Part shown: one piece after another, positions 3,768-49,101 of the stretch
Numbering within the stretch: the first letter of the stretch is position 1
How the letters are laid out: every line of letters begins with the position of its first letter
DNA from: an uncultured virus (IMG/VR IMGVR_UViG_3300047539_000012)
Lineage: Duplodnaviria; Heunggongvirae; Uroviricota; Caudoviricetes
IMG/VR virus record: IMGVR_UViG_3300047539_000012
Strand: one strand, 5' to 3'
DNA length: 64,000 bases
The notes under the pieces: model-generated
The model's database searches: none
What the model was told of the DNA's origin: nothing
What the model saw: the letters and a program-made list of their open reading frames with translations, nothing else
Made by a program: the position numbers and the translations under genes

Positions 3768-4286
3768 TCACTTGCCCGCCGCCGCCGCGAATGCGTTCGC
3801 CGCTTCTTCCTCAGTGCTCCGCATATATACCAGCGAGTTCTCCATGACTTTGTGCCCGAGATACGAGGCAACGTCAGTCACGGTCATGCCGCCTTTGAAA
3901 CCCAGCCGCCCCGTCGTGTGCTTTAACGCATGCGGGTGACATTTGAAATCGGGGATGCCCGCCTCGGTGCCGTATTCGTGCATGCGGCGTCCAAACGTCC
4001 AGCGTGACATCGGGAACCACCGGCCCACCAGCAGCGACAGGAACTCCCGCTCGCTGGCCAGCAGTGGCTGGGTGGTCTTGAATGAGCCCTTCAGCCGCTG
4101 GACTACCAGAAAATTCCCCTGCAGGTTCTCAGGGGTCAGGGCCAGAGTTTCGCTCACCCTTAGCCCGTGATTGAATGTGACAAGGAACATCAGGAAGTCT
4201 TGGAACGAGTATTTCTTGGCGACCGCCAGAAGCCTGTCGAGTTCTTCCCGCGTTAGCGAGACGACCGATTTGGAGTTCGATTGCAT
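3768..4286 (-). CDS. tyrosine recombinase, catalytic domain only (FimB/XerD-like fold)
   Basis: HGLRVSE (R), RLKG (K), HPHALKH, YLGH, LVY motifs; 172 aa. Confidence 0.85.
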   Translation of the reverse strand: MQSNSKSVVSLTREELDRLLAVAKKYSFQDFLMFLVTFNHGLRVSETLALTPENLQGNFLVVQRLKGSFKTTQPLLASEREFLSLLVGRWFPMSRWTFGRRMHEYGTEAGIPDFKCHPHALKHTTGRLGFKGGMTVTDVASYLGHKVMENSLVYMRSTEEEAANAFAAAAGK

Positions 4287-4292
4287 GATTGA

Positions 4293-4321
4293 ATAGTACA
4301 CCCCATCTGGGCGATTGTCAA
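4293..4321 (-). promoter_or_regulatory. sigma70 promoter giving a leaderless recombinase mRNA
   Basis: TTGACA-17-TACTAT, then 6 nt to ATG 4286; no SD. Confidence 0.7.
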
Positions 4322-11880: not shown

Positions 11881-12081
11881 TCAGCGAGTAATGCACTTCG
11901 TCTTGCTCGGAACTTTGTTGTACTCCGCTTTGTTCGTGGAGTGGGTTGACTTGCCCAGCGTAGCGGCGAACGCCTCTTGCACCGCAGCGCAGCCTTTGCC
12001 TTCGTAGCCGTCAGTATCGACGGTCAGGTTGCCAGTCTCTGGGTCGATCTCGATGGTGATAATTTTATTGCAGTTACCCAC
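11881..12081 (-). CDS. DUF2997-like protein
   Basis: IEID..G.......GYEGKGC......LG.......K.EY pattern; in operon with DUF1257 and the AAA ATPase. Confidence 0.7.
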   Translation of the reverse strand: MGNCNKIITIEIDPETGNLTVDTDGYEGKGCAAVQEAFAATLGKSTHSTNKAEYNKVPSKTKCITR

Positions 12082-12363
12082 TCCAAATTATCTACCGTAC
12101 AATTCTTTTTGTCAAGGTCTTTATGGTTTACTTGAGGAAGATTTAAAGGGTTGGGAATGAACGCTCTTGCAACCAAAACATGAATCGGGGGAGCATATCC
12201 ACGCCCATTAACTGAGACATGCAGGTATCCTCTAACAACATTGGGCTTAAGAACTTTACCCACTTTTGTGGAACGATAGAATGTAAGTCGCTTAACTCGG
12301 CCCATGTTTGACACAGCGTAGTCAGGGAACTGCGGTATGGTTTTCCAGAGTTCCGTCTTGTTC
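12070..12363 (-). pseudogene. NUMOD4-HNH homing endonuclease fragment
   Basis: ELWKTIPQFPDYAVSNMGRVK (NUMOD4) and HVLVARAFIPNP.NLPQVNHKDLDK.N..V.NLEWVT (HNH); no in-frame start before NUMOD4; AT-richer than flanks. Confidence 0.75.
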
Positions 12364-24276: not shown

Positions 24277-24885
24277 TTATTCGTTTGACTTGCCAAGTGT
24301 CTTCCCCGGCCATAGGTTCTCCTTCGTTATCTCCTGAGGATTCGGGCGATTCTTCATGACAGCTACGATCTCCTCCAGCGACCACGGGCTGAACTCATGC
24401 CCATCCACTCCGATGTCGAACGACTTGCCGACGACGGGCAACTCGCCATGTGAATGCCCGTACACCATGCACGAGCCTTTGTGTGATCTGTTCCACACTC
24501 GCATCGCATAGTGGCAGATGAAAATCTCCGTGTTGTCGAACTTCACGATATGCGTGCCACTCGCTTTGTTCTCGCCACGCACCCAGTCGAATTGTTGTCG
24601 AAGGTACAACTGCTGCTCCATCAGTTCATCGTGGTTCCCGTAGATGAATGCGTGCCGACCATTCAGGGCGTACAGGATATCCAGAGCATCTTTGAGCGGC
24701 ACGGTGTGCCAGAACATGTCTCCGACGTGAATGGTCAGGACGTTATTGGAGTCGGGCACCTTCGCATTGTGCTGCGAGATGATGCGGTCACGCATCTCGG
24801 ACACGTTGGCGAACGGACGTTTGCAGTACTTGATGATGTTCGCGTGTCCGTAATGTTCGTCGGCTGTGATGAACAAATCACTCAT
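24277..24885 (-). CDS. calcineurin-like metallophosphoesterase
   Basis: ADEH, VGD, GNHD, HY, GHSH motifs; AGGAG RBS before ATG 24885. Confidence 0.9.
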   Translation of the reverse strand: MSDLFITADEHYGHANIIKYCKRPFANVSEMRDRIISQHNAKVPDSNNVLTIHVGDMFWHTVPLKDALDILYALNGRHAFIYGNHDELMEQQLYLRQQFDWVRGENKASGTHIVKFDNTEIFICHYAMRVWNRSHKGSCMVYGHSHGELPVVGKSFDIGVDGHEFSPWSLEEIVAVMKNRPNPQEITKENLWPGKTLGKSNE

Positions 24886-24906
24886 TGGAGTCTCCTGCAA
24901 AAATGT

Positions 24907-25190
24907 GCCCCGTTTCTGTTCCCAAGTACGGGGCGAACTCGGTCGTGCGGTCGGGTTAGCGACCAGCAGCGGCAGCCATAGCCAATGGTTTCGTGGCATT
25001 TGGTTTTTATGTGTCCGTTTAACGTGAGCCACACCAGCACGAGATGTCCACCGCCCCTTAATCGCCCCTGTCGAATCTACGCATCCCCGCTCAGGACACA
25101 TAGTGCCCTCAGCGGGAATGGTGGAGATGTCGGGGGGTTGCACCCCGAGTCCAGAAACGTAAGACACAGCTTCATACATCCATAACTTGC
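24907..25190 (-). ncRNA. ssrA: circularly permuted (two-piece) tmRNA
   Basis: acceptor piece ...GGAC-T arm-CATCTCC-A-CCA ends at 25119; 30 nt spacer; coding piece starts GGGGATG..GATTCGAC at 25088; 7 bp acceptor stem with G3:U70; helix 2 pairs the two pieces; tag ORF 24997-24956. Confidence 0.88.
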
Positions 25191-25576
25191 TGCCTTCTGT
25201 TATGCTCGTAAGCGGCATTGGCAGAACGGCAATTTGTGCAACGGCATCGATACTCTTTGTACGAGTTCAAGGTGCCGTGTGGTGAAGTATAAAATCCTCT
25301 TTCCTTCACCGTCTCTGCGAAATGACATGCTCGACACAATAAGTCGCACTTCGCTAACTCTGCTTCGATTCGTTCCTTCCGCCACCCCCAGATTCGATTA
25401 GAAATCTTTTCCTCTCGGACTCGATGGTGGAATTCCAGATTCGTAGTAGACTTACATTTCTGACAGCAATCCCCACGCTCGCTCTCGTAATGAGCACGAC
25501 GATCCGCTATCCAATTGCGTTGCCATTCTAATTGCTTTTCCTTGTCTTTGTATGGCAATGGAAACCCCGCCTTCAT
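25172..25576 (-). CDS. HNH endonuclease
   Basis: CQKC....LEFHH...E..KC.LLCRACH; HGT..Y....CRC..C; real start probably TTG (MPYKDKE). Confidence 0.85.
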   Translation of the reverse strand: MKAGFPLPYKDKEKQLEWQRNWIADRRAHYESERGDCCQKCKSTTNLEFHHRVREEKISNRIWGWRKERIEAELAKCDLLCRACHFAETVKERGFYTSPHGTLNSYKEYRCRCTNCRSANAAYEHNRRQQVMDV

Positions 25577-26326: not shown

Positions 26327-28351
26327 TCACTTTTTATAATACGGCGATGAATACCCTTCCGCCTTTAAGACAAAGCCCATACCCTCTGCCCAATCAGGGA
26401 TTTTAGTCATGCAGTCCAACAAATCATTAAGTCCGAGGGGTGAATCGATTGGCGACTCAACTACGAGTTCATCGTGAATCGTCGCAAGAATCCCAAACCC
26501 CAACTTCTCTGCTTCCATCATCCCCCAAGCGAGCAAATCCCGGGCGATAGCTTGAATGACGTTCTCAACGATGAGCCCGCCGTACAGGTCACTCACCTTC
26601 GACCCTTTGGAATCGAACTGCATGTACGAAACTTGCTCAAGCGGTCGGCTGAACTTGTTGCTGACGTTCACGAACGGCTTGTGGTAATGTAGGCACCGTC
26701 CGGACGGCAGTTTGATCTTGAGCACGTTCTTGTTGCGCCCGTCTACGACGCATCCCTTGACGAAGACGCAGATGTTAGACTTGACTGCGTTGATGACCGC
26801 CGTGTTGAACTCCCGCCACAGGGCCGGAATCTCTGGGTACGTTTCACGGAACCCGTAGACTGACTCCTTCGCTTCTTTCTCGGTCAACGTGAGCCCATAC
26901 GTCGCGGCATAGTCAACGTACTTTTCCCATCCCATGCCGTAGCCGCATCCGAGCACCTGAACCTTACCACGGTCACGGTGAGCCCCCGTGATCTGATCCA
27001 TCGGAATGCCCAACTGCTTCGACATACACTCTTTGTAGAGGTCTCTTCCGTTGGCGTATGCGTCCATCATCGAGTGGCACTGAGCCACGACGGAGAGGAC
27101 TCTGGATTCGATCTGTGCCAAGTCACCGACCTTCAGCGAGTGGCCCGGGCTTGCGATGAATGAACTTCTGATCGTCGATGCGACCAGATTCATCGGAGTG
27201 AACGGCGAGTAAATCTTTTTGCCCAGACGAATCGCCCGGGAGTAGATGTCCAGTCTCCGCTTCTCTTCGTCCTTGACTTTCTTGCCCCAGTCGTATGCGA
27301 TGACGTTGCGGTCTGGCTTGAATAAATTCTGGAGTTGGACGCCACGCCCCGCCCATCTCGCTGTATGTGCGCCAGCGTAGATGAACTGGTCACGCAGCCG
27401 ACCGTCAACCCCCATGCGGTCTAGGATAGCCTCTAACTTTTTATAAGCCGAGCCACCCAACTTCTGCTTGAGTTCGAGTATCTGTCTGACCAGTGGCTTG
27501 AGAGTATGCCCATATTTAAGAGCCTCTTCGACATGCTCTTTGTCAAGAGAATCGTAATGGTATCCACGCTCTTTGAGCCAACCAAGTAGTTGAGCCCGAG
27601 AGTTAGGGTTGTCGAGCCCCGTGTTGGCTTTGATCTCGAAGTTGATTTCATCCGCTTCTGCTTCTGCGAGTTTCTTTGCGTTGGTGACGTATGCTTGATC
27701 AATGTTGACTCCTCTCTCGTTCATGCGTTGGTCTAACTGCCAGACTCGGAACTCCTCGTCAGTCATCGGGCAGTTCAGTGCGACGGCAGCGTGATAGGTT
27801 TCACGTTCGGCCCGGACGTCCTGCAGACAGTACTGGCAGAACTGTTCCCATTCTTCGGGATGGCTGATCCAGTCTTTGTAGTACATCGTGGGTGCGCCGG
27901 GATTCTTCTTGAGCACCGTCTTTTTCTGCTTCGTCGGCTCGCTGAACATCTTGACGTACTTCTTGCCGTCTTTGTTTTTCGCTTCAACGATGTTCAACGC
28001 CTTCGCCGCCCGATCCAAACCGATTGGTAGCGACATGTAAGCGCAGAGAACGCTGGGATCGAACCATCGTGCTCTGTCTATCGTGAGCCCCACGCAGCGT
28101 GCGGATATCAGGCGTTCAAAATTGTAGTTCCACGCACCGAGCAGAATCTGGGGGTCATCGAGCCACGTCCTGAGGTCGGCGGGCATCTCTTCGCCTAACC
28201 AGATGCGCCAGAGTTTGGGGTCTTCATCGTTCAGGGCGTACGCCAGCATCAACGGCTGAGTTGTCGGGTCAAGGCTGTACCTGTCGAGCCCGTGATTCTT
28301 GAGCTTGTTGGAACTGCGAGTCTCATAATCGAGCCAAAGTCTGGTTACCAT
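26327..28351 (-). CDS. polA: family A DNA polymerase (3'-5' exonuclease + polymerase)
   Basis: LDYET exo I; HTARWAG..VQLQNL; DLAQIESR (motif A); R...K...L...YG (motif B); TIHDE (motif C). Confidence 0.95.
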   Translation of the reverse strand: MVTRLWLDYETRSSNKLKNHGLDRYSLDPTTQPLMLAYALNDEDPKLWRIWLGEEMPADLRTWLDDPQILLGAWNYNFERLISARCVGLTIDRARWFDPSVLCAYMSLPIGLDRAAKALNIVEAKNKDGKKYVKMFSEPTKQKKTVLKKNPGAPTMYYKDWISHPEEWEQFCQYCLQDVRAERETYHAAVALNCPMTDEEFRVWQLDQRMNERGVNIDQAYVTNAKKLAEAEADEINFEIKANTGLDNPNSRAQLLGWLKERGYHYDSLDKEHVEEALKYGHTLKPLVRQILELKQKLGGSAYKKLEAILDRMGVDGRLRDQFIYAGAHTARWAGRGVQLQNLFKPDRNVIAYDWGKKVKDEEKRRLDIYSRAIRLGKKIYSPFTPMNLVASTIRSSFIASPGHSLKVGDLAQIESRVLSVVAQCHSMMDAYANGRDLYKECMSKQLGIPMDQITGAHRDRGKVQVLGCGYGMGWEKYVDYAATYGLTLTEKEAKESVYGFRETYPEIPALWREFNTAVINAVKSNICVFVKGCVVDGRNKNVLKIKLPSGRCLHYHKPFVNVSNKFSRPLEQVSYMQFDSKGSKVSDLYGGLIVENVIQAIARDLLAWGMMEAEKLGFGILATIHDELVVESPIDSPLGLNDLLDCMTKIPDWAEGMGFVLKAEGYSSPYYKK

Positions 28352-28359
28352 CGTAACCT

Positions 28360-28577
28360 CCAATCGCTGTAATCACTGTAAATCGGGAAAAGTGAACTAT
28401 CTTGTTGATTCTAAATGGTCCGAAGGTCAATCGCTTTCACTGTAATCCCTATATATACGACTCATTTTTTTTTCTTCATGTATATATAGGGCTGACAGCG
28501 ACAGCGATTGGGTCTAAGTCACTCATTCTAAAAGAAAATAACTGCTGTCACCTCCTTACAGCGATTCGACAGCGATT
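28360..28577. repeat. putative replication origin (inverted iterons around an AT-rich palindrome)
   Basis: AATCGCTGT / ACAGCGATT copies flanking CCCTATATATAC...T-tract...GTATATATAGGG. Confidence 0.65.
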
Positions 28578-30618
28578 ACCCGTCCAACCCGAACTTCTCG
28601 GTCCCTTTGTGAGTTTTCCCCAAAACTATCAACGCCCCACTGCCTAGCATCGACTTCCACGCCCTCAGGAATGTCTCCATGCCGCCGCTTCCCGCCCTAT
28701 AGGCGTTGCAGGCGTCCATCAACTGCCGCTTGGTTAGGGCCTCATGCTTCTTTAGGGCCTTCCGCATCCCTTGCTCCATTCTCTCCACAAGATTCCCCTT
28801 ATCTACGGGCCAGAGTTCTTCTCGCAGGTAAAGTTCGTGCTCTGCCCACGCGATGCTCCGCGTGACCATATCGGCGGTGATGCCGGGTGGGCCGTCCTGA
28901 AATAGTGCCCGCAGCATCAAGTCCCGTTTGAAATGCGACTCTAATCGGGACGTCATACCCATACCGGGCATCGCCTCATTCAGTCGGGTCCGCTGGACGC
29001 CCAGAGACTTCTGGAACTTCTGTCGCAACTCGTAAGCATCTGGCGTCTCGGTTATCAACATCGGCTTGCCTTCGTGCTCACCCATCCAACTGACTATCAT
29101 TTGCCAGCGGTCGAACATCTTGTTGGAAATAGCATTGATGGCCGCCGTGTCCAAGTCGGGCCAGTCGCCCGTGTGTGTGACGTCGCCCGTATAGGTAATT
29201 TCACATCGTGAAAGGAATCCGTCACCACCAGCACCCTTGCCCGTGACCGCAGACTCGAACGATGACCGAGTGAATCCACCTGTGAACGAGAGCGAGATAT
29301 GCTTGAACGAGCCGCCGTCGTGTGACAGCGAGCCCGCACTTGAATCGCTTCGGTCATACAGTTCGATCAGCTTCGAGAAGAGGGTCGAGTTCAGGCCGTT
29401 GCCTTTCTCGAATAGAATCTTCAACTCGTCGAAGTACACGAGACAGTTCTTGTTCTCGAAGTCTTCACTGAGCCGCTTCACCATGTGCTCGCCCGACGAG
29501 AACCATCCCGCCAGAGGCATACCGAGATTCGTCTTTGCAATGTAGGACGCCAGAGCCTGTTCACCAGTTCGCTTCCACGATTCGCCTTTGCCCGATTCGG
29601 GGTGAGCAGAGACCAGCATCGACCAGTGCTTCATGTGCAAGTCGGGCTGCCCGGGGAATCCTACTTTCCCGTCAAGAGATGCCGCAAGGATCGTTTTGAT
29701 TTGTGCTCTAGCAAAGGACACCGGGATAAACGTGCCATCTGCGACGAGATGGGCGAGTTCTCCGATCCAATCTCCGTCAACAGCCGTGTCAGGCAACTCA
29801 GTGATGTTGACGTCAATCTTTTTTGAGTCTCCGAAAAAGACCACTGGACTTGCTTCGGCTGCGTCGAATTTGTTGAACGCTGCGTTCGCAATCTCTCTGA
29901 TTTTTTCATCGGGATAGTTTTCTCCATCTTCGCAATTGTTGATAGCGAAGTTCTTGAGTGCCTGATAGATTCCCTCTTCGTCCAGCCCCGCATTCCGGAA
30001 TGTCCCCGACTTCGACTGAAGATGAATCCATCGGTTGCCCGCAGCGATCATCTTGCCGCCGTCGCCCACTGGGACGTAGTTCACTTGCTTCTTCTCTTTG
30101 GCCAGAGTGCGAATCCCCTCTGGAAGTGGGGCGATAGTGATGTCTTTGAGGATGTAGTACTTCTTGCCCGAGGGGTGCATGGAACCCGGGCCAACGACAT
30201 ACCCGCCGTGACTCTTCAGTTCGCCCGTGACTCCGTCGATGTCAAACCCCGTCGTAGCGACGGCCCCGCTGTAGTACATGTGGGCACCGAAGCCATCACG
30301 GCCTGAGATCACTGTGAGCGTTTCAGGGAAACCGTGCCCGACACGCCAAGCCTCGAACGCCTCCAGCGAGTCGCACCCGTGATCCACGTCCACCACAGTT
30401 AAATTACTTTGCCCACAGGCGATTCCATAGTTCGCGTCCTTGCCGTCGGCCCAAGCCTTCAGAGCGACGTCGGGATTGCGTGTTGCCGAATTAACGGCGT
30501 GCGGGCTATACAGACTCCACGGTGCTTTGTCATGAGGCTCGCAAACCAAAATTGCAAACCCACGAGCCAGAGCATTTTGCGCTGAAGCGAGAATCTCCCC
30601 AACTAATTCATTAGGCAT
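28576..30618 (-). CDS. bifunctional Prim-Pol primase fused to a DUF3987-like helicase domain
   Basis: K.P, NYGIACG....VVDVD, G.HMYY, GGYVVGPGS.H.SG..Y; SGKGES, SSGE, DE, GFLSR. Confidence 0.85.
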   Translation of the reverse strand: MPNELVGEILASAQNALARGFAILVCEPHDKAPWSLYSPHAVNSATRNPDVALKAWADGKDANYGIACGQSNLTVVDVDHGCDSLEAFEAWRVGHGFPETLTVISGRDGFGAHMYYSGAVATTGFDIDGVTGELKSHGGYVVGPGSMHPSGKKYYILKDITIAPLPEGIRTLAKEKKQVNYVPVGDGGKMIAAGNRWIHLQSKSGTFRNAGLDEEGIYQALKNFAINNCEDGENYPDEKIREIANAAFNKFDAAEASPVVFFGDSKKIDVNITELPDTAVDGDWIGELAHLVADGTFIPVSFARAQIKTILAASLDGKVGFPGQPDLHMKHWSMLVSAHPESGKGESWKRTGEQALASYIAKTNLGMPLAGWFSSGEHMVKRLSEDFENKNCLVYFDELKILFEKGNGLNSTLFSKLIELYDRSDSSAGSLSHDGGSFKHISLSFTGGFTRSSFESAVTGKGAGGDGFLSRCEITYTGDVTHTGDWPDLDTAAINAISNKMFDRWQMIVSWMGEHEGKPMLITETPDAYELRQKFQKSLGVQRTRLNEAMPGMGMTSRLESHFKRDLMLRALFQDGPPGITADMVTRSIAWAEHELYLREELWPVDKGNLVERMEQGMRKALKKHEALTKRQLMDACNAYRAGSGGMETFLRAWKSMLGSGALIVLGKTHKGTEKFGLDG

Positions 30619-30675
30619 CTTACCTCCAAAATGTGCGGGGCCCGCTGGCACGAGCCCCACAATGTTACGGCGTAA

Positions 30676-39047: not shown

Positions 39048-41054
39048 GTGATAGCGGAGAATCTAGGGGGATGGTTCGATCTACACCGTCACGACAAGAA
39101 CTACCAGCACCGTGACATGGGTGAGGCTGAGTTCACCGAGCGGGCGAAAACGAGTTTCGACAGACTCACTCAAGATCAACGAACCAAAGTGGTCTCCGTG
39201 GGTTCTATCTACGGGATCAAGAAACTGGAAGACATCCAGCGATTCCGCTTCCTAGCACAGACAAATTTGTTTGCGCTGTGCAAACTCCTTGAGAAATACA
39301 AGGACATGACTGACCACGAGTACATGTGGACTGACGGTCTAACGCACAACACGCACGAGGAGATATGCAACGATTTCTTCGTACGGAAAGACCCGACCAA
39401 GAAGATGTTCAAAGATTTCGCGGCGAAAGAGAACTACATCGAGCAGAAGGATAGATTGCTGCTCGTACCTCGCGGCGGGTTCAAGTCTTCAATGAACATG
39501 GCCGACTGCGTGCAGTGGGTCATCGTACACCCCGAGGTCACGATCCTCGTGCTCACGGGTGTGCTCGACTTGGCGAAAGACTTTGTAGGCGAGATCAAGG
39601 GTCACTTCACTCTTGACGAGGGCGGGACTCCCGGGCTGTTCATCAAGAAGATTAGCCTCAAGCCACGGTATATGCCCGACGGCACGGAGAGCATGTTCCA
39701 AGTTCTCTTCCCCGAGCATTGCATACCGAAGGATGATGGAAAAGGGTATGAGTACCAGACCCCGGCGGTGTTCGCCAGCGAGAAGGAATGCACGGTCAAG
39801 GCGGCATCGATTGAGCAGAACTTGGCTGGATGGCACTATTGCATTCTGAAGTTGGACGACGTCGTGACGAACGAGAACTCACAGACGGCTGACCGTATTC
39901 ACAACATCAACAAACAGGTCAGTATCAACCAAGCCATGATGCACCCGTTCGGATTCTATGACAAGATCGGAACGTGGTACGACACACAGGACACATACGG
40001 GCAGGACATCATCAACCTCAAGAAACACTTAGAGGCGGGCGGGTCGTCCGAGCAGTTCCCGATTAAAATTTACATTCGTGCGGCGTGGTGGCAGAATCCC
40101 ACAGCGAAGGCCCTCGGCTTGATAGAAGCGGAGATGTCCGAGAGTGACTACGACTACTGGTTCAATGTACCGGACAATGAGCACTCGCTAACGTACAAGT
40201 TTCTCTATCACAAGAAGAAGACCGATGAGTACTTTGCAATTAAGTATCTCAACGATCCGACTCAGTTACACGTCATCAAGTTCCCACGGGAGTTGTTGGT
40301 ACGACGTACAATTCCAGCGGCACAGATGCCGACGGTAGCCACGGGAATGATTGTCACCTGTGTGGACACGGCCTATTCGACTAAGTCGTGGGCCGATTAC
40401 ACAGTCATAGCGACGGCCATGATTCTAGGCGGGAGGTTCTTCCTCATCGACCTGAAGCGTGACCGCTACAACGAGTTTGAACTGCCAGCGATGATTGCGG
40501 CGACGGCCCTCCAATGGAAACCTCGGCGCATCTGTATCGAAGAGTCAGTTGGTGTGAAGTGGATGGGCCGCGAGGCCTATAGGGAGATGGACAAGTTGAA
40601 AGTCCGTGTTCCTATCGAATGGGTTTCACTTGGTCAGGGCAAGAAGACCAAGTCGAAGACTGAGAAGGCGGGGCCAGTGCTCAATGCACTAGGTCTGGGG
40701 AACTTGCTATTCCTCAACACCTGTCCTAATCTCGATCAACTTTATGACGAACTGTCTAAGTTCGGTACCGCTGCGGCAACGCACGATGACATCGTGGATG
40801 TACTGGCGATCCTCATCAACCAGTTCTCGGCATACGCCGCGAACGACGCGAAGGTATCTGCGGCTCAGGATGTGTACTTCAATCCGAAGCAGCAAGCAGA
40901 GTACCGACAAGTATTTGAACGGCTGGTTCAGAATCCCGCCAACATGGCGGCATTGGCTTCGAGTTTTCCGGACTCCGCTGATAGCGAACCTTTACCTACA
41001 GGATTCGGGCTAGGGTCAGATGCAGGCGACCCCCTCGCAGACCTGATGGGATAA
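39048..41054 (+). CDS. terL: terminase large subunit
   Basis: LLVPRGGFKSS Walker A; G.H....LDD Walker B; IGT.Y...D.YG; VDTA.......DYT; HDDIVD nuclease motifs. Confidence 0.92.
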   Translation: MIAENLGGWFDLHRHDKNYQHRDMGEAEFTERAKTSFDRLTQDQRTKVVSVGSIYGIKKLEDIQRFRFLAQTNLFALCKLLEKYKDMTDHEYMWTDGLTHNTHEEICNDFFVRKDPTKKMFKDFAAKENYIEQKDRLLLVPRGGFKSSMNMADCVQWVIVHPEVTILVLTGVLDLAKDFVGEIKGHFTLDEGGTPGLFIKKISLKPRYMPDGTESMFQVLFPEHCIPKDDGKGYEYQTPAVFASEKECTVKAASIEQNLAGWHYCILKLDDVVTNENSQTADRIHNINKQVSINQAMMHPFGFYDKIGTWYDTQDTYGQDIINLKKHLEAGGSSEQFPIKIYIRAAWWQNPTAKALGLIEAEMSESDYDYWFNVPDNEHSLTYKFLYHKKKTDEYFAIKYLNDPTQLHVIKFPRELLVRRTIPAAQMPTVATGMIVTCVDTAYSTKSWADYTVIATAMILGGRFFLIDLKRDRYNEFELPAMIAATALQWKPRRICIEESVGVKWMGREAYREMDKLKVRVPIEWVSLGQGKKTKSKTEKAGPVLNALGLGNLLFLNTCPNLDQLYDELSKFGTAAATHDDIVDVLAILINQFSAYAANDAKVSAAQDVYFNPKQQAEYRQVFERLVQNPANMAALASSFPDSADSEPLPTGFGLGSDAGDPLADLMG

Positions 41055-41067
41055 GGAAGGAAATCTC

Positions 41068-43200
41068 ATGGCTGATGAATCTGTACTGACGGCTACCGTC
41101 GTACCTGACGGTGACCCAAACGGCGGGCTGCAGGCGAAAGACTTCGATGCGAAGGGCCAACTACCCATCGACAAAGAACTGACCTTGGTCTGTAAGTCGG
41201 CCCAAATGGCGAATGCGTTCATTGCAAACCGCCAGTGGACTTTGTTGTGGCGCGATGCAGACTTGTTGTTCCAATCGCCACGACCGATGACGGTCTACGA
41301 GAACACTTATGTTCTTGAGCCGAACGTCCAGCGATTCACGGTTGCGAAGGTTTGCAACGCGGTTGTACCGCAACTCTACAAGGGTTTGTTTTACGACGAC
41401 CCACCGATGTTACTTCGGCCACGTCCGGGCACGAGTCAGAAGGCTGTGGATGCGAAGACGGCTTTGTATTCGTTCATCCTCGATCAGTGTCAGTTCAAGA
41501 ACCACGTCAAGTGGGGCCTTGAGCAGATGGCGCACCTTGGAACAGGTATCTTCAAGTGGGGATATGACTGGAACGAGGTAGAAACATACAAGCGGTCGGC
41601 TACGTTCACGAACGTCGAGTCTACGAATCCCGACGGGAGTACGTCTACAACGTCTATCGCTACCGATGAATCACCCAAGATCGAACGCACGGTGAGAGTC
41701 GTGCCGCTACCGTTCTTTGAGCATCGTCCATTGAACAGGGTGCTCGTTGATCCACACTGCGAAGTCTCGGACATCCGAGAAGCAGGCTGGGTTATCGACG
41801 TGCGGTACATGGACTGGTATCAGTTCATCGAACTCAAGAAGTCTATCGTCGGCGCGAAAGACGACGGCGAGAACGGCCTTGCAATCGACGGGTATAAGTT
41901 CCCGTCTGACAAACAGATCAGAGCCATTTGGGAGAGCCAGCCCCGTGCGGGCACCCGACAACTCGATCAGGAGACACAGGTTCGTGGAGTTGTGTTCCAC
42001 TCCGAAGAGATTAACAACGACGCAAGCCCCGACCCATTTAGAACCAAGCTCGAAGTATTAGAGTACTGGGACAAAGGTCGTAAGATCATAGTTCTCAACC
42101 AAGAAAAAGTGATCTTCACGGGCGAGAACGAATTCAAAAAAATTCCGTTCCTGTCATCCAACTGGTGGAATCGCCCCCGGGCATTCTACGGTATGGGTCT
42201 CGGCCTGATCGTTGGCCAGAATCAGCGGGTTGACCAAGGAAGCATCAACGCCATTCTCAAGATACTGAGTTATGGTGTGAACCCGATCTATCTGCGTAAT
42301 AGGGACGACAACGCCCCGACGCAAACCATCCGCACAGGCATCGGCAAGATTCTAAGCGTGACGGATGTGGAGAAATCTTACAAGCTGATGGAGAGTCCGA
42401 AGGTGCCGTCCGATATCTGGGCGGCTCTGAAGGAATCCGAGACAGCGACGGAGAGTTCGTCTGGTGCAGACCAGACGTTAGTCCAAGGTTCCTCTGCTGG
42501 CCCACGGGCTGGCATGGGTCGGTCGGCCACTGGGGCGAACCTAATGGCGGGGGCCAGTGCAACAAGACTGGATGGTCCCTTAGACAACTTCATCGAGCAG
42601 GTCTTCAAGCCGTTCCTTGGCATCATCGAAATGCTGACGTTCACAGTAATGTCAGATAAAGCGATCCTGCACATCCTCGGCAAAGATCAGGGTGCGGATT
42701 TCCTAGAAGGCTTCGACATTCAGGAGTTCCACAACGCCCAGATCGAGTACGAAGTCCTTGCGGGCTCATCGTTGGCTGCGAAGCGGACGATGGCACAGTC
42801 GATGGTTATGCTCACGCAGATTCTCGACAACCCACAGATTCAGCAATCGCTGGCAGAGATCAATCAGGAGTACATCGACTTCAAGCCGATCATCTCCATG
42901 TGGCTCGAAGCCAGTGAGTGGAAGAACAAGAACGACATCATCAAGCCGATGACGGCTGAGATGAAACAGCGCCGGGATGCGAACTCGAAGGCCGCTATGC
43001 AGCAAGGTGCAATGCAGGCCAAGCAGCAAGGCGACCAACAGAAGTTCGTCCAGAAGCAGCAACTCGAAGATCAAGCATCTGACAACCGAATCAAGCGGGA
43101 CATAACCCGTGAGGCCGCTAAGGCCAGCGGAATGTCGGAGACGGTCAATGGAACCCCGTCGCAACAGGGAATCCAAGGGCAGATGCCGAATGTCGAATAA
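41068..43200 (+). CDS. portal protein
   Basis: 710 aa directly after terL; GTG..K.G, VDP, EYW, FYG.G, SATG motifs; Q-rich tail. Confidence 0.85.
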   Translation: MADESVLTATVVPDGDPNGGLQAKDFDAKGQLPIDKELTLVCKSAQMANAFIANRQWTLLWRDADLLFQSPRPMTVYENTYVLEPNVQRFTVAKVCNAVVPQLYKGLFYDDPPMLLRPRPGTSQKAVDAKTALYSFILDQCQFKNHVKWGLEQMAHLGTGIFKWGYDWNEVETYKRSATFTNVESTNPDGSTSTTSIATDESPKIERTVRVVPLPFFEHRPLNRVLVDPHCEVSDIREAGWVIDVRYMDWYQFIELKKSIVGAKDDGENGLAIDGYKFPSDKQIRAIWESQPRAGTRQLDQETQVRGVVFHSEEINNDASPDPFRTKLEVLEYWDKGRKIIVLNQEKVIFTGENEFKKIPFLSSNWWNRPRAFYGMGLGLIVGQNQRVDQGSINAILKILSYGVNPIYLRNRDDNAPTQTIRTGIGKILSVTDVEKSYKLMESPKVPSDIWAALKESETATESSSGADQTLVQGSSAGPRAGMGRSATGANLMAGASATRLDGPLDNFIEQVFKPFLGIIEMLTFTVMSDKAILHILGKDQGADFLEGFDIQEFHNAQIEYEVLAGSSLAAKRTMAQSMVMLTQILDNPQIQQSLAEINQEYIDFKPIISMWLEASEWKNKNDIIKPMTAEMKQRRDANSKAAMQQGAMQAKQQGDQQKFVQKQQLEDQASDNRIKRDITREAAKASGMSETVNGTPSQQGIQGQMPNVE

Positions 43201-44839: not shown

Positions 44840-46432
44840 ATGAGTTTCTCCCCAGCAGGCAATCAGTTATCTAACCTGCCCCAGAGCACGGTTAAGTATT
44901 ACGATAGATAGTCGTTTGTCGTAACAAAATCTCCTTTAATTGACTTGAAACCTGAAATGGCAACAAGGCGGAAGCAGACTTGACAAGAGTCGGGCACCGT
45001 GAGAGACTAAACAAGGAGACACACATGCAAACTTCTGAACAGCGAAAAGCTTGGCTCAAACTTAACCGTGCCAAGATGACGGAATATAGCAAGAAGTGGC
45101 GTCAAAGCGAAAGCGGAAAACGTCATGAACTCGCTCGTCACCTGTCCAGAAAGTATGACATGACGATTGAGGATAAGCAGAAAATGTGGGATGAACAGAA
45201 GGGGCTTTGTGCCGTCTGTCTCAGACCACTCCCTGATATCTTTAATCGGGATTGCCAAGTTGAGCATGACCACGCAACGAATAAAGTGCGTAGTTTGGCT
45301 CACTGGTATTGCAACATGGTCGTCGGTGTCATGGAGAAACATTCCGTGCCACTTGAGGGCGTGATTGCGTATCTCAAAGTGATGCGATAGTCCGAACATA
45401 CGGAAAACCAAACCGTATGAGGTTAGCAGAAATGTCTAGCCCGCTGAAGCCTTCAGCAGCGTAACAATCCTGAAACGGTTCCGCGAGAACTTGAAGGCGC
45501 AGACCCCGTTCGTCCGTTGTTCACAGCGTCTGGACTTGCCGAAGAATTCCGGTAACCAGTACGAGATGTTCATGTACGTTCCGCTGGCGGCTCTGACCAC
45601 TCAGACCACCGAAGGAACCGTTGGCTCGTCTTTGAGCGTCAACGTCCTGAACACCACCGCGACAATCGGGGAGTACGCAGATTACGCGAACTTCTCCAGT
45701 CTGTCTTTGGCGACCGCCATCGACAACACTGTCGAGAACGTGGCGAAGGAACTGTCGTATCAGTTGGGCGAGTCCCTGTCGGCTCTGGTCCGTGCGACTG
45801 CAGACGGTGCGAACAGCATCGACTCCAGCGTGCTGATCGAGTTGGCGGCTGCTTCGACCTCCAGTTTCACCGCTCTTTCACTGAGCCAAATCCGAAACGC
45901 CGTCCAGTCACTGGCTGGCCGTTCCGTGAAGCCGTTCATGAAGGACATGTTCGCTGGCGTTATCCACCCGTTCGCCCTTGGCGACGTGCTGGCTGACAAC
46001 AGCAACGATTCCCCCATCGACATCCTGAAGCACACCGCTCAGGGTCAGATGAGCATGGACGAGTTGGTGAGCACCGACCTCGAAGACACAGTTGAACTGC
46101 CGTCTTCCGGCGTGAAGTTCTTCCAGACGAACCTCGTCACCCAGACCGCCAACTACCAAGGCGTGACTGGCCTGACCGCTCTGCGAACGTACATCTTCGG
46201 GCAGGATGGAATCTTCTCCATCAACCTCGGAGCGCAGAACGACACTACGTTCGGTGAAGGACAGTGGCAGAACATCAAGTGCAACGTGGTACAGAACGCT
46301 GCACCGACCGTGGCCGACCCTGAAGGGTTGATCCCGGGATGGACTTCCTACCGCGTTCACTTTACGACCTCGTTGGGTCCGGACACCACGATCCGCATCC
46401 GTGAGATCGACGCGGCTTCGGCCATCAGCTAA
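44840..46432 (+). CDS. major capsid protein (N4-gp56/P22-like), join(44840..44905,45473..46432), 341 aa
   Basis: spliced MSFSPAGNQLSNLPQSTVKYYD|KRFRENLKAQTPF...; LP.NSG, EG, Y.D....S, IHP, DP motifs. Confidence 0.88.
44906..45472 (+). mobile_element. group I intron
   Basis: exon ends in U paired with G in P1 (TTACGAT/GTCGTAA); P10 TCGTTT/AAACGG; P7 GAGACTA...TAGTCC; terminal G; removal restores the reading frame. Confidence 0.9.
45025..45390 (+). CDS. intron-encoded endonuclease VII-family homing endonuclease
   Basis: Q.GLCAVC...VEHDH....VR.L.H..CN; AAGGAG RBS. Confidence 0.85.
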   Translation: MQTSEQRKAWLKLNRAKMTEYSKKWRQSESGKRHELARHLSRKYDMTIEDKQKMWDEQKGLCAVCLRPLPDIFNRDCQVEHDHATNKVRSLAHWYCNMVVGVMEKHSVPLEGVIAYLKVMR

Positions 46433-47228: not shown

Positions 47229-48539
47229 ATGTCTTCCTTCGATCCGTACGATCCTACAGCGAATGACCCGAAGCAGACTACCGGACTTGGAATCGCTACG
47301 AACGTGGTGCTTACGGGTCTTGGAGTTCTGCCTATCGTCCCCTTTGTCCCGGGCACGAGAGGCGTATCACAGTTTAAGGTGAGTGTCCCCATCGGCGGTT
47401 TTGTGCAGGTCACCGCACTTCCTGTCGATGATTCGGGCGCTCCAGTTTCGCTGTATCCGCCGGGGACAGGCGGCGGCATTGTCCTTACCCCTCAGGCGAC
47501 CCATCTCGGCACGGCAGCGAATTTCGCTATCCTCGCCCACTCATCCATCGTTGGTAGTGCGGGTGCGGGCTCCGTAATCACAGGTGGAGACGTGGGTCTC
47601 TACCCCGGGACTGCCATATCGAGTTTCCCGCCCGATTACGTGGTTCCCCCGAACGTGCAGCACATCACAGACGCGGCGGCGTTGCAGGCTCAGACTGATT
47701 TGACTGCCGCTATCGCATACTACAGCGGATTGTCGTTCACCGCTCTGGGTAGCGACAACATGAGCGTCAACGGCAACTTGACCGCGAACACGTACAAGGC
47801 AGGCAACTACAGTGGTGGGGCCTTAGACATCCCGACCACGATCTACCTTGACGCTCAGGGAAACCCCCAAGCGGTGTTCGTATTCAAGGCGTCTTCGACA
47901 CTTACGCTGGAAAGCGGGGCACAAGTCGTCCTGCTGAATGGCGCACAGGCGGGTAACGTCTACTGGGTTGTTGGGTCTTCGGCAACCACAGTTTGGAACG
48001 GGATTCAGTCGAACATGGTTGGAACAATCATGGCGTTGGCTTCCGTCACCCTTGGTGGTGGAAACCTCCAAGGACGGGCCTTGGCTTCAACCGCCACGGT
48101 TACTATGTCCACAACGGAACTCATTACGTCTCCGATCCTAGCCTTGGTTCCAAGCGGCGTACCTTACGGTGTCAGCCCCTACGGTTGCAATGCAATCGTG
48201 AAGGCTGCCGCTCCGCTGGGAACATCGCAGGGATACGGATACGAGTTGCTCCCTTCTTGGTACAGACCGAATCCGTTCGGTGGAGCGAACGTGCTCGGCG
48301 CGAAGGCTTATGCGGGATTCGCACTCGATATGGCTTCGGCCACTGTCGATGACGATGACGCTAATCCGTGGACTGTTCGAGGAAGATTCCCCGGACAGGT
48401 CATCATCGACTTCCAGATTCCTACCTTCGGAAATACCGAAGGCCAGAGTCTGGTAGACGTGAATACCGTGATGGACGAAAGTTACATCGATTTAATCGAT
48501 GCCCAACTTATTGTCACCGTGACGGGTGGAACCTCCTAA
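47229..48539 (+). CDS. decoration-protein paralogue with DUF3494 ice-binding domain
   Basis: LGTAANFAILA...GDVG..PGT...A.QAQ.DL..A...LDAQGNP.AVFVF...VVL.NGAQA.NVYW.VGSSAT...GTI.A...GRALA. Confidence 0.85.
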   Translation: MSSFDPYDPTANDPKQTTGLGIATNVVLTGLGVLPIVPFVPGTRGVSQFKVSVPIGGFVQVTALPVDDSGAPVSLYPPGTGGGIVLTPQATHLGTAANFAILAHSSIVGSAGAGSVITGGDVGLYPGTAISSFPPDYVVPPNVQHITDAAALQAQTDLTAAIAYYSGLSFTALGSDNMSVNGNLTANTYKAGNYSGGALDIPTTIYLDAQGNPQAVFVFKASSTLTLESGAQVVLLNGAQAGNVYWVVGSSATTVWNGIQSNMVGTIMALASVTLGGGNLQGRALASTATVTMSTTELITSPILALVPSGVPYGVSPYGCNAIVKAAAPLGTSQGYGYELLPSWYRPNPFGGANVLGAKAYAGFALDMASATVDDDDANPWTVRGRFPGQVIIDFQIPTFGNTEGQSLVDVNTVMDESYIDLIDAQLIVTVTGGTS

Positions 48540-48639
48540 TTCTAAAGGATTTAACACCCACAATAATCTCTGGATTAATTACCCACGAGAAGGGGTGGTG
48601 CCAGTAACGCCACCCCAAATTCTTTACTGGAGAATAAAA

Positions 48640-49101
48640 ATGCAAACAAACGCACAACGACAGGCGAAGTACCGAGCAGAACATCTAGATGAATGTCGGG
48701 AACGGGAACGCTCCTGTACCCAACGACAACGAGATAATGCTTCACCAGAATGGACTAGAAGACAATCTTGGTTGGCCGTGGGGCGGGTTTATAAGTACCG
48801 CTACGGGCTAACACGAGAACGGTACGAGGCTAAACTAGCTTCCCAGAATAATTTGTGTGGCATGTGTCATAAGCCATTCGACTTCTCTCAGCGGGCAACC
48901 AGTCCCGCACTCGACCATAATCACAAGACTAAACAACTCCGTGATTTTGTTCATCACCGTTGCAACCTTGCCTTAGGACATCTACTCGAAAGTGTGGATA
49001 ACGCCCGGTTCGCAGCGGAATACTTGGAGAAGCATCAGGAGGGATTATGTCGAACTCAGCGGAACGCAAGCACGGGCAGAACTTCAACATTGCTCAGGTG
49101 A
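48640..49101 (+). CDS. free-standing endonuclease VII-family endonuclease
   Basis: YGLT..Y.....Q...C..C...LDHNH....R..VH..CN..LG. Confidence 0.85.
   Translation: MQTNAQRQAKYRAEHLDECRERERSCTQRQRDNASPEWTRRQSWLAVGRVYKYRYGLTRERYEAKLASQNNLCGMCHKPFDFSQRATSPALDHNHKTKQLRDFVHHRCNLALGHLLESVDNARFAAEYLEKHQEGLCRTQRNASTGRTSTLLR

Follow-up and report, generated by a model that had tools for sequence, protein, structure and literature searches.

The RNA known as tmRNA frees stalled ribosomes. The minus strand of a 64,000-nucleotide stretch of DNA from an uncultured tailed virus (hereafter the window) raises two questions. Does this phage encode a tmRNA whose 3' end precedes its 5' end, and was such an order inherited from bacterial two-piece genes or reached anew in a phage? 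A sequence-only reading had proposed a phage-encoded permuted tmRNA and, as a possibility, an independent permutation. The present analysis supports the view that the window carries a phage-encoded, circularly permuted (two-piece) tmRNA gene hidden beneath an over-long ORF. It further makes it quite probable that this ssrA is a working phage copy that came from the alpha-type two-piece lineage and was not permuted afresh. Four things are directly observed: the anatomy of the gene, its conservation with covariation across four related phages, the selection acting on its tag peptide, and its kinship with tmRNAs of the alpha type.

Anatomy of the permuted gene

The Rfam covariance model RF04321 matches positions 24962-25181 on the minus strand with 67.3 bits (cut-off 47, E 8.6e-11); no other Rfam family exceeds its cut-off within the 64 kb window. 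The letters quoted in the sequence-only reading are likewise those of the minus strand, on which all features below lie. Of the two programs suggested there as checks, the Rfam tmRNA models thus gave a positive answer, and ARAGORN returned 0 genes in the window, the permuted tmRNA going unrecognised. ARAGORN calls the related loci L001, L013 and L075, and misses L011 and L012. The RF04321 score is modest and by itself no proof of permutation, because the G002 locus, which has an ordinary one-piece tmRNA, also exceeds the cut-off (49.5 bits). However, every tRNA-like and mRNA-like element can be read directly in the sequence, and all of those listed earlier were found in place. The whole ssrA gene occupies 24907..25181, beginning with the acceptor piece and closing with the 3' hairpin, as delimited by RF04321, direct reading and alignment to L011, L013 and L001. 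Its order is T arm, CAUCUCC-ACCA, a 30-nt hairpin spacer, GGGGAUG, D-loop analogue, P2, PK1, tag frame and 3' hairpin.

The acceptor piece (25119..25181, from RF04321 and the four-sequence alignment) comprises the 5' strands of P2d, P2c, P2b and P2a, then the T arm, the acceptor 3' strand and ACCA. Just 5' of it the alignment reveals a conserved leader motif, AAGUUAU (25182..25188), which appears as AAGTTAT in the window, L011 and L013 and as GAATTAC in L001. The T arm (25130..25148, helix 4 of the alignment) has a 6-bp stem, UCGGGG/CCCCGA, and a 7-nt loop, UGCAACC. Most tRNAs have UUC in the T-loop, where the window reads UGC. The T stem is 100% paired across the family, with two compensatory pairs. 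Its extra sixth pair reads G-C in the window and appears as C-G in L011, and in L013 and L001 the T stem is 5 bp long and carries a UUCGAYU loop. The acceptor 3' strand CAUCUCC, the discriminator A and an encoded CCA follow (25119..25129, direct reading), with a predicted mature 3' end at 25119.

The CCA ends at 25119 and the GGGG of the 5' strand begins at 25088, which bears out the claim that the 3' end lies upstream of the 5' end across a 30-nt hairpin spacer. By folding, the spacer (25089..25118) forms a stable hairpin of -25 kcal/mol (z -4.99; 0/200 shuffles fold equally well), which is additionally paired to the leading Gs of the acceptor 5' strand. An equivalent spacer hairpin of -13.6 kcal/mol is present in L011. 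The coding piece (24907..25088, from RF04321 and direct reading) has its predicted RNase P 5' end at G25088. It opens with the acceptor 5' strand GGGGAUG (25088-25082) and the D-loop analogue CGUAGAUUCGAC (25081-25070), which together span 25070..25088 by direct reading and alignment. GGGGAUG pairs with CAUCUCC in a 7-bp acceptor stem, followed by ACCA. The G3:U70 alanine determinant noticed earlier is kept as G-U in 4/4 family members (alignment columns 72/181). L011 has the same 19-mer (25070-25088), and so does L012, the tmRNA of which is one-piece and unrelated.

The two pieces are joined by helix 2. All three of its previously named segments pair, TAAGG/TCTTA and ACATC/GATGT among them; ACAUC/GAUGU is the best supported, with 4/5 pairs changed on both sides, and a fourth segment, GCUGU/GCGGU, can be added. 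The element described as PK1-like (25009..25041, helix 6 of the alignment) is a true pseudoknot, in which the loop GUGUG of the hairpin CGUG/CACG pairs with a downstream CACAU. This second stem covaries: its five pairs form in 4/4 sequences and two are changed on both sides, one pair reading GU, AU, CG and GC and another going from GC to AU. Both PK1 stems are paired in all four members, with both-side changes, and PK1 lies upstream of the resume codon. Helix 5, GGUCG/CGACC (24949..24964, by folding, -9.7 kcal/mol, z -3.1), holds the stop codon UAA (24958-24956) within its loop, as had been read; it is clear in the window and L013, and in L011 and L001 it is no better than in shuffles. The 3'-terminal hairpin GCCCCGU-ACUUGGGAACAGAA-ACGGGGC (24907..24934, helix 8 of the alignment) has 5/7 pairs changed on both sides in the four sequences. 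Direct reading places a ACAUUUUU tail 3' of it (24899..24906), possibly a terminator tail. The terminator scan did not list this hairpin, whose loop exceeds the length limit of the scan.

The over-long ORF covers 24277-25218 (313 aa) and overruns the RNA. The match to phrog_547 (E 7.5e-37, residues 1-186 of 202), a phosphoesterase, begins at residue 1 of a 202-aa form that starts at ATG 24885 behind GGAG. The true downstream gene is therefore 24277..24885, and the suspicion that the ORF track hides the tmRNA as a false N-terminal extension was correct. Directly upstream lies an HNH endonuclease gene (25172..25576; phrog_4234, E 2.5e-29), the stop codon of which, UGA at 25174-25172, sits inside the conserved GUAUGAAG of the tmRNA gene.

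Covariation, tag peptide and mosaic structure in the phage family

The window was aligned with L011, L013 and L001 (alignment A1, four sequences). The terminases of the L013, L001 and L011 contigs are 77%, 63% and 64% identical to that of the window, and their DNA polymerases 74%, 60% and 41%; in all three, a permuted tmRNA is found near the same DNA polymerase. All four members of the family are thus permuted, L013 and L001 with an ordinary tRNA-like domain. In A1, pairing is seen in 92.9% of cells (76.7 +/- 2.1 in shuffles) and both-side changes in 20/50 pairs (8.9 +/- 2.0 in shuffles); either value was reached in 0/500 shuffles. When partners were slid by 1-3 columns, merely 2-4 pairs were changed on both sides. 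Helices 1-4 are 95-100% paired in the four sequences, and 14 of their pairs are changed on both sides. The family stands apart from GenBank phages: the best polymerase identity to any of them is ~36%, and blastn against them found no match for the 3-kb region. With the tmRNA alone, blastn gave a 22-nt match in a Salmonella phage protein gene, which was dismissed as chance. A viral pattern scan with the PK1-to-resume stretch recovered the L001 contig only, and a single-protein search with the polymerase one locus.

The tag frame (24956..24997, by direct reading and alignment) runs from the resume codon GCC (24997-24995) to the stop UAA (24958-24956) and encodes the 13-residue peptide ATKPLAMAAAAGR. 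Peptides of the same family occur in L001 (AETKPLAMAAAAGR) and L075 (ATTKPRAMAAAAGR). Between the window and L001, 8/13 aligned sense codons differ and 0 residues change; there is also one extra codon, and the stop differs (UAA/UAG). Because all these codon differences are synonymous, the tag appears to be translated as protein. It ends in Gly-Arg, and the hydrophobic Ala-Ala degron end is absent. Purifying selection has kept the Gly-Arg end in three phage contigs. Elsewhere in the family the tag ends in AA (L011) or HA (L013). Among bacterial two-piece tags, 29/30 start with ANDN and 1/30 with ANNN, and 30/30 end in AA. The titles listed for the literature on phage-encoded or permuted tmRNA include none that points to Gly-Arg tags or 6-bp T stems, and the supplement of PMC11915505 has no 'phage' row.

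The window gene looks like a mosaic when its parts are compared separately. In the tRNA-like domain and P2 it has 86-87% identity with L011, the most distant member, and 56-67% with its closest kin; its tag is shared with L001; and peat libraries contain a co-occurring variant whose divergence sets in precisely at 24934, the 5' edge of the 3' hairpin. This make-up, the Gly-Arg tag end in place of Ala-Ala and the 6-bp T stem are the unusual features of the gene. The permuted order makes the whole tRNA-like domain (T arm, CCA, spacer, GGGG and D loop; ~80 nt) one contiguous cassette and the tag another.

Descent of the two-piece form

Permuted tmRNAs in phages have been published before, and the sequence-only reading overstated the novelty of this one. 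In the first part of Table S1 of the Melnitz paper (PMC9004378), 53/133 unique phage tmRNAs are permuted, including that of phiCbK. The phages named in that paper include phiCbK-like Caulobacter phages, the OM43 phage Melnitz, pelagimyophages, cyanophages and others, and it credits the alpha-type two-piece case in Caulobacter to Keiler et al. 2000. One-piece phage tmRNAs are described in PMC4131195 from the mycobacteriophage Bxz1 group and Bacillus phage G. The window gene is a further example of the two-piece form known in bacteria and other phages, not a new invention.

The order of acceptor piece, spacer and coding piece, the P2 helices formed by pairing of the two pieces, the position of PK1 before the tag, the ..GGNAACAGAA.. 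loop of the 3'-terminal hairpin, the G at T-loop position 2 and the G3:U70 pair are all shared with the alpha type (RF01849). A 3' hairpin loop of the form GG(C/U)AACAGAA (..GGGAACAGAA..) was found in 30/30 bacterial two-piece loci, and the window has the same at 24934-24907. An NGC T-loop (GGCGGUA, GGCAGUA and similar) is present in 30/30 of these loci, and the UGCAACC of the window fits the pattern. All 20 of the 30 loci that were checked belong to RF01849, with 203-317 bits. The window differs from these 20 genes in scoring below 37.7 bits, in bearing the tag ATKPLAMAAAAGR where bacterial tags read ANDN...AA, in a T stem of six pairs instead of five and in being phage-encoded. It also lacks a leader hairpin, because the HNH gene abuts its 5' end.

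Among phages, phiCbK has the same 3' hairpin (GCCGGGA-GCUUGGCAACAGAA-UCCCGGC), the UGC T-loop and a phage-borne two-piece ssrA. Compared with the published permuted phage tmRNAs, that of the window belongs to a different, uncultured family from peat and permafrost, not from marine or freshwater habitats. Its tag ends in Gly-Arg, and ARAGORN, with which the survey in PMC9004378 was made, misses the gene. A group of one-piece viral tmRNAs (L012, L077 and others) has in common with the window an odd tRNA-like domain and the fact of being a phage-encoded rescue RNA. Unlike the window, the one-piece phage tmRNA genes that were read have the standard gene order, keep PK2-PK4 and have no AACAGAA hairpin.

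The clade models give a graded picture. On RF01849 (alpha_tmRNA, cut-off 50), L013, the nearest relative of the window, passes with 72.8 bits, and L011, L001 and phiCbK reach 39.1, 37.0 and 21.1. On RF01850 (beta, cut-off 84), the window scores 37.7, L013 66.8, L011 47.3, L001 44.6 and phiCbK 32.7, none of them reaching the cut-off; L013 has 30.4 bits on the cyano model. The window itself is below the alpha, beta and cyano cut-offs. Its best score is the 37.7 on beta, and its RF01849 score is accordingly given as below 37.7, against 50, since only the best clan model, beta, was retained. The L013 loop CCUGGCAACAGAA is identical in every letter to the common bacterial loop, and an exact AACAGAA is found in the window, L011, L013 and phiCbK. 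The preference for alpha over beta descent stays tentative, because L011, L001 and phiCbK score slightly higher on beta, the consensus of which carries a comparable hairpin in the corresponding position, with the loop CCUUGuuACcaAA.

Descent from the betaproteobacterial two-piece lineage, which draws on that hairpin after the tag and on RF01850 being the best clan model for the window, L011, L001 and phiCbK, is unlikely. No member reaches 84 bits, L013 passes the alpha model and is lower on beta, the phage loops with their exact AACAGAA are closer to the alpha loop, and the NGC T-loop is found in 30/30 alpha loci. The bacterial promoter and terminator parts of the beta model are absent from the window. 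Among 151 sampled genomes of the class of G002, 0 passed RF01850; this sample includes the unpublished G143 and G041, on which no other result rests. An independent permutation would mean that a one-piece phage tmRNA was rearranged in the lineage of this phage and that the likeness to bacterial two-piece genes is convergent. The tRNA-like domain of the window (GGGGAUGCGUAGAUUCGAC, 6-bp T stem, YGCRACY loop, CAUCUCCACCA) is indeed of a type that one-piece viral tmRNAs chiefly have: this 3' end is shared by 24 viral loci, 22 of them one-piece and 2 permuted, the L012 one-piece tmRNA has the exact 19-mer, and the window is below all three clade cut-offs. Yet the L012 contig has no match to the terminase or polymerase of the window, and the one-piece genes that were read have AT-rich bodies and no AACAGAA hairpin. 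In its helix layout and in the 13-nt loop of its 3' hairpin, the window gene agrees with alpha-type genes, one family member passes RF01849, and all four are permuted, two of them with an ordinary tRNA-like domain. Together with the AACAGAA hairpin and NGC T-loop of all 30 bacterial loci and the same hairpin in phiCbK, this makes the fresh permutation suggested by the sequence-only reading a decidedly improbable origin.

That the locus is a captured, decaying host gene or an attachment-site remnant without a function of its own is hardly credible. tmRNA genes are common integration sites, the window has an integrase-family ORF at 3771-4301, and ARAGORN rejects the gene. Against this, the gene is complete and 21 kb from the integrase, its location is conserved among four diverged phages, where compensatory changes accompany it, and its tag differs only synonymously between two of them. 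Nor did a search of 185,579 species genomes for the exact 19-mer place it in any bacterial tmRNA. It gave 1 match, where ~4 chance matches are expected by our own arithmetic. This match was taken as chance, since it falls within protein-coding sequence of a Ca. Oxydemutator MAG, where Rfam and ARAGORN are both blank; the ordinary one-piece tmRNA of that genome is 1.15 kb away. Inheritance of the two-piece form from the alpha-type lineage is thus the preferred reading.

Predicted expression and ribosome rescue

The promoter scan showed no sigma-70-like promoter, and the gene is therefore likely to be transcribed with or behind the upstream HNH gene, probably as one precursor. Host RNase P would cleave 5' of G25088, trimming of the 3' end would stop at the encoded CCA (25119), and the 30-nt spacer with its hairpin would be discarded. 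The 7-bp acceptor stem and the four P2 helices would then hold the acceptor piece (25181-25119) to the coding piece (25088 to ~24907). The G3:U70 pair would let host AlaRS charge the RNA. A check of the 97 ORFs in the window turned up no SmpB, and host SmpB and EF-Tu would deliver the tmRNA to stalled ribosomes. There, translation would restart at GCC 24997, append ATKPLAMAAAAGR to the nascent protein and end at UAA 24958-24956. This whole course, from transcription through processing and charging to tagging, is inferred, and so is the fate of the tagged proteins.

Contigs from two RNA libraries cover parts of the gene (X16, 24950-25327; X17, 24931-25150) and give a weak hint of its expression; they may be DNA carry-over, they show neither RNA ends nor strand, and the parts that they leave uncovered carry no meaning. 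One of them spans both predicted cut sites, which fits a precursor or DNA alike. They show a variant that differs between 24934 and 25593. As for the host, the protein atlas gives Pseudomonadota as the commonest taxon for the polysaccharide-synthesis gene, too weak a hint to be of use.

Since the Gly-Arg end would not be an Ala-Ala degron of the ClpXP type, the phage may free ribosomes without sending the products to the usual protease of the host, or may send them to another fate. A wider proposal, in which the two-piece gene serves this phage family as a collection of interchangeable modules and the Gly-Arg tag is no ClpXP-type degron, rescue proceeding without the usual protease or towards some other fate, is speculative and, on balance, doubtful.

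These results have consequences for annotation. ARAGORN, the standard tool, misses the genes of the window and L011, and ORF callers give a false protein of 313 aa instead. Only the recent merged Rfam model finds the window gene, yet it passes some one-piece loci, so that the anatomy must be read. The range of phage-borne two-piece tmRNAs is extended to an uncultured, SU10-like family of tailed phages from peat and permafrost. In this family, the conserved Gly-Arg end, the 6-bp T stem and the mosaic make-up could show whether ribosome rescue by phage tmRNA operates without the host proteolysis signal.

Anatomy and phage setting of the permuted tmRNA gene

The letters quoted in the sequence-only reading are the minus-strand reading of 25190-24907, and the gene elements that follow are all on that strand. 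One strand of each of four helices and then GAC lie 5' of a T arm, UCGGGG-UGCAACC-CCCCGA (25148-25130), which runs into the acceptor 3' strand CAUCUCC with ACCA (25129-25119). A 30-nt spacer (25118-25089; hairpin of -25 kcal/mol) leads to the acceptor 5' strand GGGGAUG (25088-25082) and the D-loop analogue CGUAGAUUCGAC (25081-25070). The strands that complete the four helices come next, and after them the pseudoknot PK1 (25041-25009), a short tag frame running from GCC to UAA (24997-24956), a small hairpin whose loop contains the stop codon (helix 5, 24964-24949), and a terminal hairpin, GCCCCGU-ACUUGGGAACAGAA-ACGGGGC (24934-24907), then ACAUUUUU.

An Rfam tmRNA model, one of the checks proposed in the sequence-only reading, recognizes the gene: RF04321, the merged permuted tmRNA model, scores 67.3 bits over 24962-25181 of the minus strand (E 8.6e-11; cut-off 47) and is the sole Rfam family above cut-off across the 64 kb. 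ARAGORN, the other program proposed there, reported no gene anywhere in the window. The RF04321 score is not proof by itself, because a locus with an ordinary one-piece tmRNA, found in a sample of 151 bacterial genomes (G002:C1:1358138-1358398), also passes the gathering cut-off of 47, at 49.5 bits; matches of 50-65 bits, the score range of 12 other sampled genomes, therefore need their gene order read by eye. The permuted order in the window is demonstrated by the anatomy read straight from the sequence. Together with the RF04321 match and the surrounding phage genes, it bears out the proposal of a phage-encoded, circularly permuted (two-piece) tmRNA.

PHROGs and Pfam searches identified a large terminase (39048-41054), an SU10-type portal (41068-43200; an adaptor is also named) and, on the minus strand, a family A DNA polymerase (26327-28363), a primase-polymerase (28576-30660), an HNH endonuclease (25172-25576) and a phosphoesterase of 202 aa (24277-24885), whose start ATG at 24885 lies behind GGAG. 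Because the phosphoesterase profile begins at residue 1 of this 202-aa form, the 313-aa ORF hiding the RNA (24277-25218) is a false extension, as suspected. The same searches gave no SmpB match among the 97 window ORFs scanned (69 + 28). The polymerase reaches about 36% identity at best with GenBank phages, all 1964 matching records being below 60%. Public runs containing the stretch are labeled as peat and permafrost metagenomes.

The window also carries four homing-endonuclease-like genes, two of HNH type and two with an Endonuclease VII domain (25172-25576 and 12027-12314, minus; 44980-45387 and 48526-49098, plus); one adjoins the tmRNA gene and two are within the structural module. An ice-binding-like domain protein (PF11999, E 5e-35; 47229-48536, plus) is encoded among the structural genes of this phage, whose DNA occurs in permafrost and peat runs, and may just have a beta-helix tail fibre fold. 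A short integrase-family ORF (177 aa, PF00589, E 3e-15; 3771-4301, minus) could reflect a temperate lifestyle or be a remnant.

PMC9004378 reports tmRNA in 402 of 18,146 phage genomes and 133 unique phage tmRNA forms. By ARAGORN, 53 of these forms are two-piece, among them those of phiCbK, Karma, Magneto, Swift, pelagimyophages, cyanophages, and phages of Stenotrophomonas, Citrobacter, Pseudomonas and Bordetella. PMC11915505 presents 79 bacteriophage tmRNA sequences and describes the building of RF04321; early cases of one-piece phage tmRNA appear in PMC4131195.

Relatives, covariation and the tag peptide

A phosphoesterase query gathered 10 viral loci, and a scan with the 19-mer formed by the acceptor 5' strand and D-loop analogue (25088-25070) added 2; among these 12, L001 and L011 contain a permuted tmRNA and L012 a one-piece tmRNA. 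A polymerase query led to L013, whose permuted tmRNA occupies the corresponding position (RF04321, 94.6 bits). Three contigs are members of the window's phage family: those of L013, L001 and L011 have terminase identities to the window of 77, 63 and 64% and polymerase identities of 74, 60 and 41%, respectively; the L012 contig gave no match to the window terminase or polymerase. In another phage (L002 619-2566, plus), six tRNA genes (His, Pro, Met, Tyr, Leu, Ser) upstream of a related phosphoesterase occupy the place where this family has the tmRNA.

The structure read from the window was placed on a four-sequence MAFFT alignment and compared with 500 shuffles. With only four, mutually related sequences, one of which supplied the structure (a bias in its favour), 92.9% of 184 cells are paired versus 76.7 ± 2.1 in shuffles, and both sides change in 20 of 50 pairs versus 8.9 ± 2.0; none of the 500 shuffles attains either value. 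When the partners are slid by 1-3 columns, 43.5-52.2% of cells remain paired and both sides change in 2-4 pairs. Three acceptor pairs are scored as broken in L013 and L001 only because MAFFT shifted their longer D loop by one column; by eye, GGGGGCG is fully paired with CGCCUCC. The pk1-like element noticed earlier is corroborated by its second stem, which covaries across the window (GUGUG/CACAU), L011 (AUGUG/CACAU), L013 (CUGUG/CACGG) and L001 (GUAUG/CAUGC). Helix 5, which the sequence-only reading placed around the stop codon, is clearly seen in the window and in L013; in L011 and L001 it does not exceed shuffles.

The tags read ATKPLAMAAAAGR in the window, AETKPLAMAAAAGR in L001, AMTEKPRAFAAAAA in L011 and AKTNVKAFAAHA in L013. 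Of the 13 sense codons that align between L001 and the window, 8 differ, all synonymously; L001 has one codon more and ends with UAG, the window with UAA. A pattern scan for the coding string of ...AMAAAAGR-stop found a sole further contig, L075, where the ARAGORN prediction is a permuted tmRNA whose tag reads ATTKPRAMAAAAGR. It follows that the tag peptide, including its Gly-Arg end, is under selection as a protein sequence. Tags of 30 bacterial two-piece genes end in Ala-Ala in every case.

Descent and apparent mosaic make-up

These 30 genes come from 151 sampled genomes of the phylum of G002, of which 37 genomes score 113-162 bits on RF04321. All 20 of those checked are alpha_tmRNA (203-317 bits); all 30 have AACAGAA in the terminal hairpin loop, mostly as CCUGGCAACAGAA, and a T-loop beginning N-G-C. 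The sequence-only reading had raised an independent permutation in a phage, and the tRNA-like domain of the window is indeed odd, with GGGGAUG..., a 6-bp T stem and a YGCRACY loop; the extra T-stem pair shows a compensatory change from G-C (window) to C-G (L011). A viral scan for the 3' end of this domain found 24 loci, and it speaks for that idea that 22 of them are one-piece genes (296-387 nt); the other two, L089 and L078 (the gene of L011), have the permuted order. However, the one-piece genes L077, L079 and L085 are AT-rich and without the AACAGAA hairpin, the L012 contig is unrelated to the window's phage, and two family members carry an ordinary tRNA-like domain (GGGGGCG, UUCGAYU loop) in an otherwise homologous gene. 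Moreover, the window shares its terminal hairpin and UGC T-loop with the bacterial two-piece genes; L011 and Caulobacter phage phiCbK carry this hairpin too, and the L013 loop is CCUGGCAACAGAA in every letter. L013 also passes the alpha cut-off (72.8 bits versus 50; beta 66.8, cut-off 84; cyano 30.4). We therefore think that the permutation did not arise independently in a phage.

We conclude that the gene descends from the known two-piece stock, more likely on the alpha than on the beta side. The scores give a mixed picture: beta slightly exceeds alpha in L011 (47.3 versus 39.1 bits), L001 (44.6 versus 37.0) and phiCbK (32.7 versus 21.1), beta is the best clan model for the window (37.7 bits), and the beta consensus (RF01850) has a similar hairpin; a search for authentic beta genes gave none, as 0 of 151 genomes sampled from the class of G002 passed RF01850.

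The one-piece viral group of 22 genes (L012 601-959, plus, and L077, L079-L088, L090-L100) has a tRNA-like domain like the window's: GGGGAUG(C/U)GUAG(A/U)UUCGAC, a 6-bp T stem, a YGCGACU loop and CAUCUCCACCA. L012, the member run, is missed by ARAGORN, yet scores 75.2 bits on RF00023. The alpha-type hairpin loop CCUGGCAACAGAA and the beta-model loop CCUUGuuACcaAA are alike in lineages described as separate permutations, which may reflect common function or common ancestry. In the phiCbK RefSeq record, the permuted tmRNA is unannotated (L044 259-698, plus; NC_019405.1 about 103253-103692); its tag by ARAGORN is VAANDNDVVAFASAREAIAA, and it scores 71.4 bits on RF04321 and is under cut-off on alpha, beta and cyano.

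Identity to the window in L011, L013 and L001, respectively, is 87, 64 and 67% for the leader and acceptor piece, 86, 56 and 62% for the acceptor 5' strand, D loop and the four P2 helices, and 45, 41 and 66% for the tag. These values are at odds with the protein comparison, which places L013 closest to the window, and the gene therefore looks mosaic. In two peat RNA libraries, contigs matching the flanks cease to follow the window at precisely two places, 24934 and 25593. They indicate a co-occurring variant whose tmRNA body is different and which lacks such an HNH gene. Module exchange or convergence on host machinery fits better than a fresh permutation.

Proposed expression and implications

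The RNA is probably made within a longer transcript, because a promoter scan found no sigma-70-like promoter and the HNH stop codon (25174-25172) falls within the conserved GUAUGAAG. In L011, which is without such an HNH gene there, TTGACA-17-TAATAT was read by eye about 50 nt upstream. Cleavage by RNase P would fall just before G25088, trimming would bring the 3' end to the encoded CCA at 25119, and the spacer hairpin would be lost, with the acceptor stem and P2 keeping both pieces together. Host AlaRS, SmpB and EF-Tu would then act on the molecule, and GCC would be the codon at which the ribosome resumes. The gene is covered by the RNA-library contigs X16 (24950-25327) and X17 (24931-25150); RNA ends are not visible in them and they could derive from DNA. 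The L011 leader (740-700, minus) includes UGGUGGAG, which is exactly complementary to CUCCACCA at the mature 3' end, and the two could pair in the precursor; the window, unlike L011, has no such leader.

The window gene is thus a real, conserved two-piece tmRNA borne by a phage. Its type is already known, and three traits make it unusual: a tag ending in Gly-Arg, a T stem of 6 bp, and what looks like a mosaic make-up.
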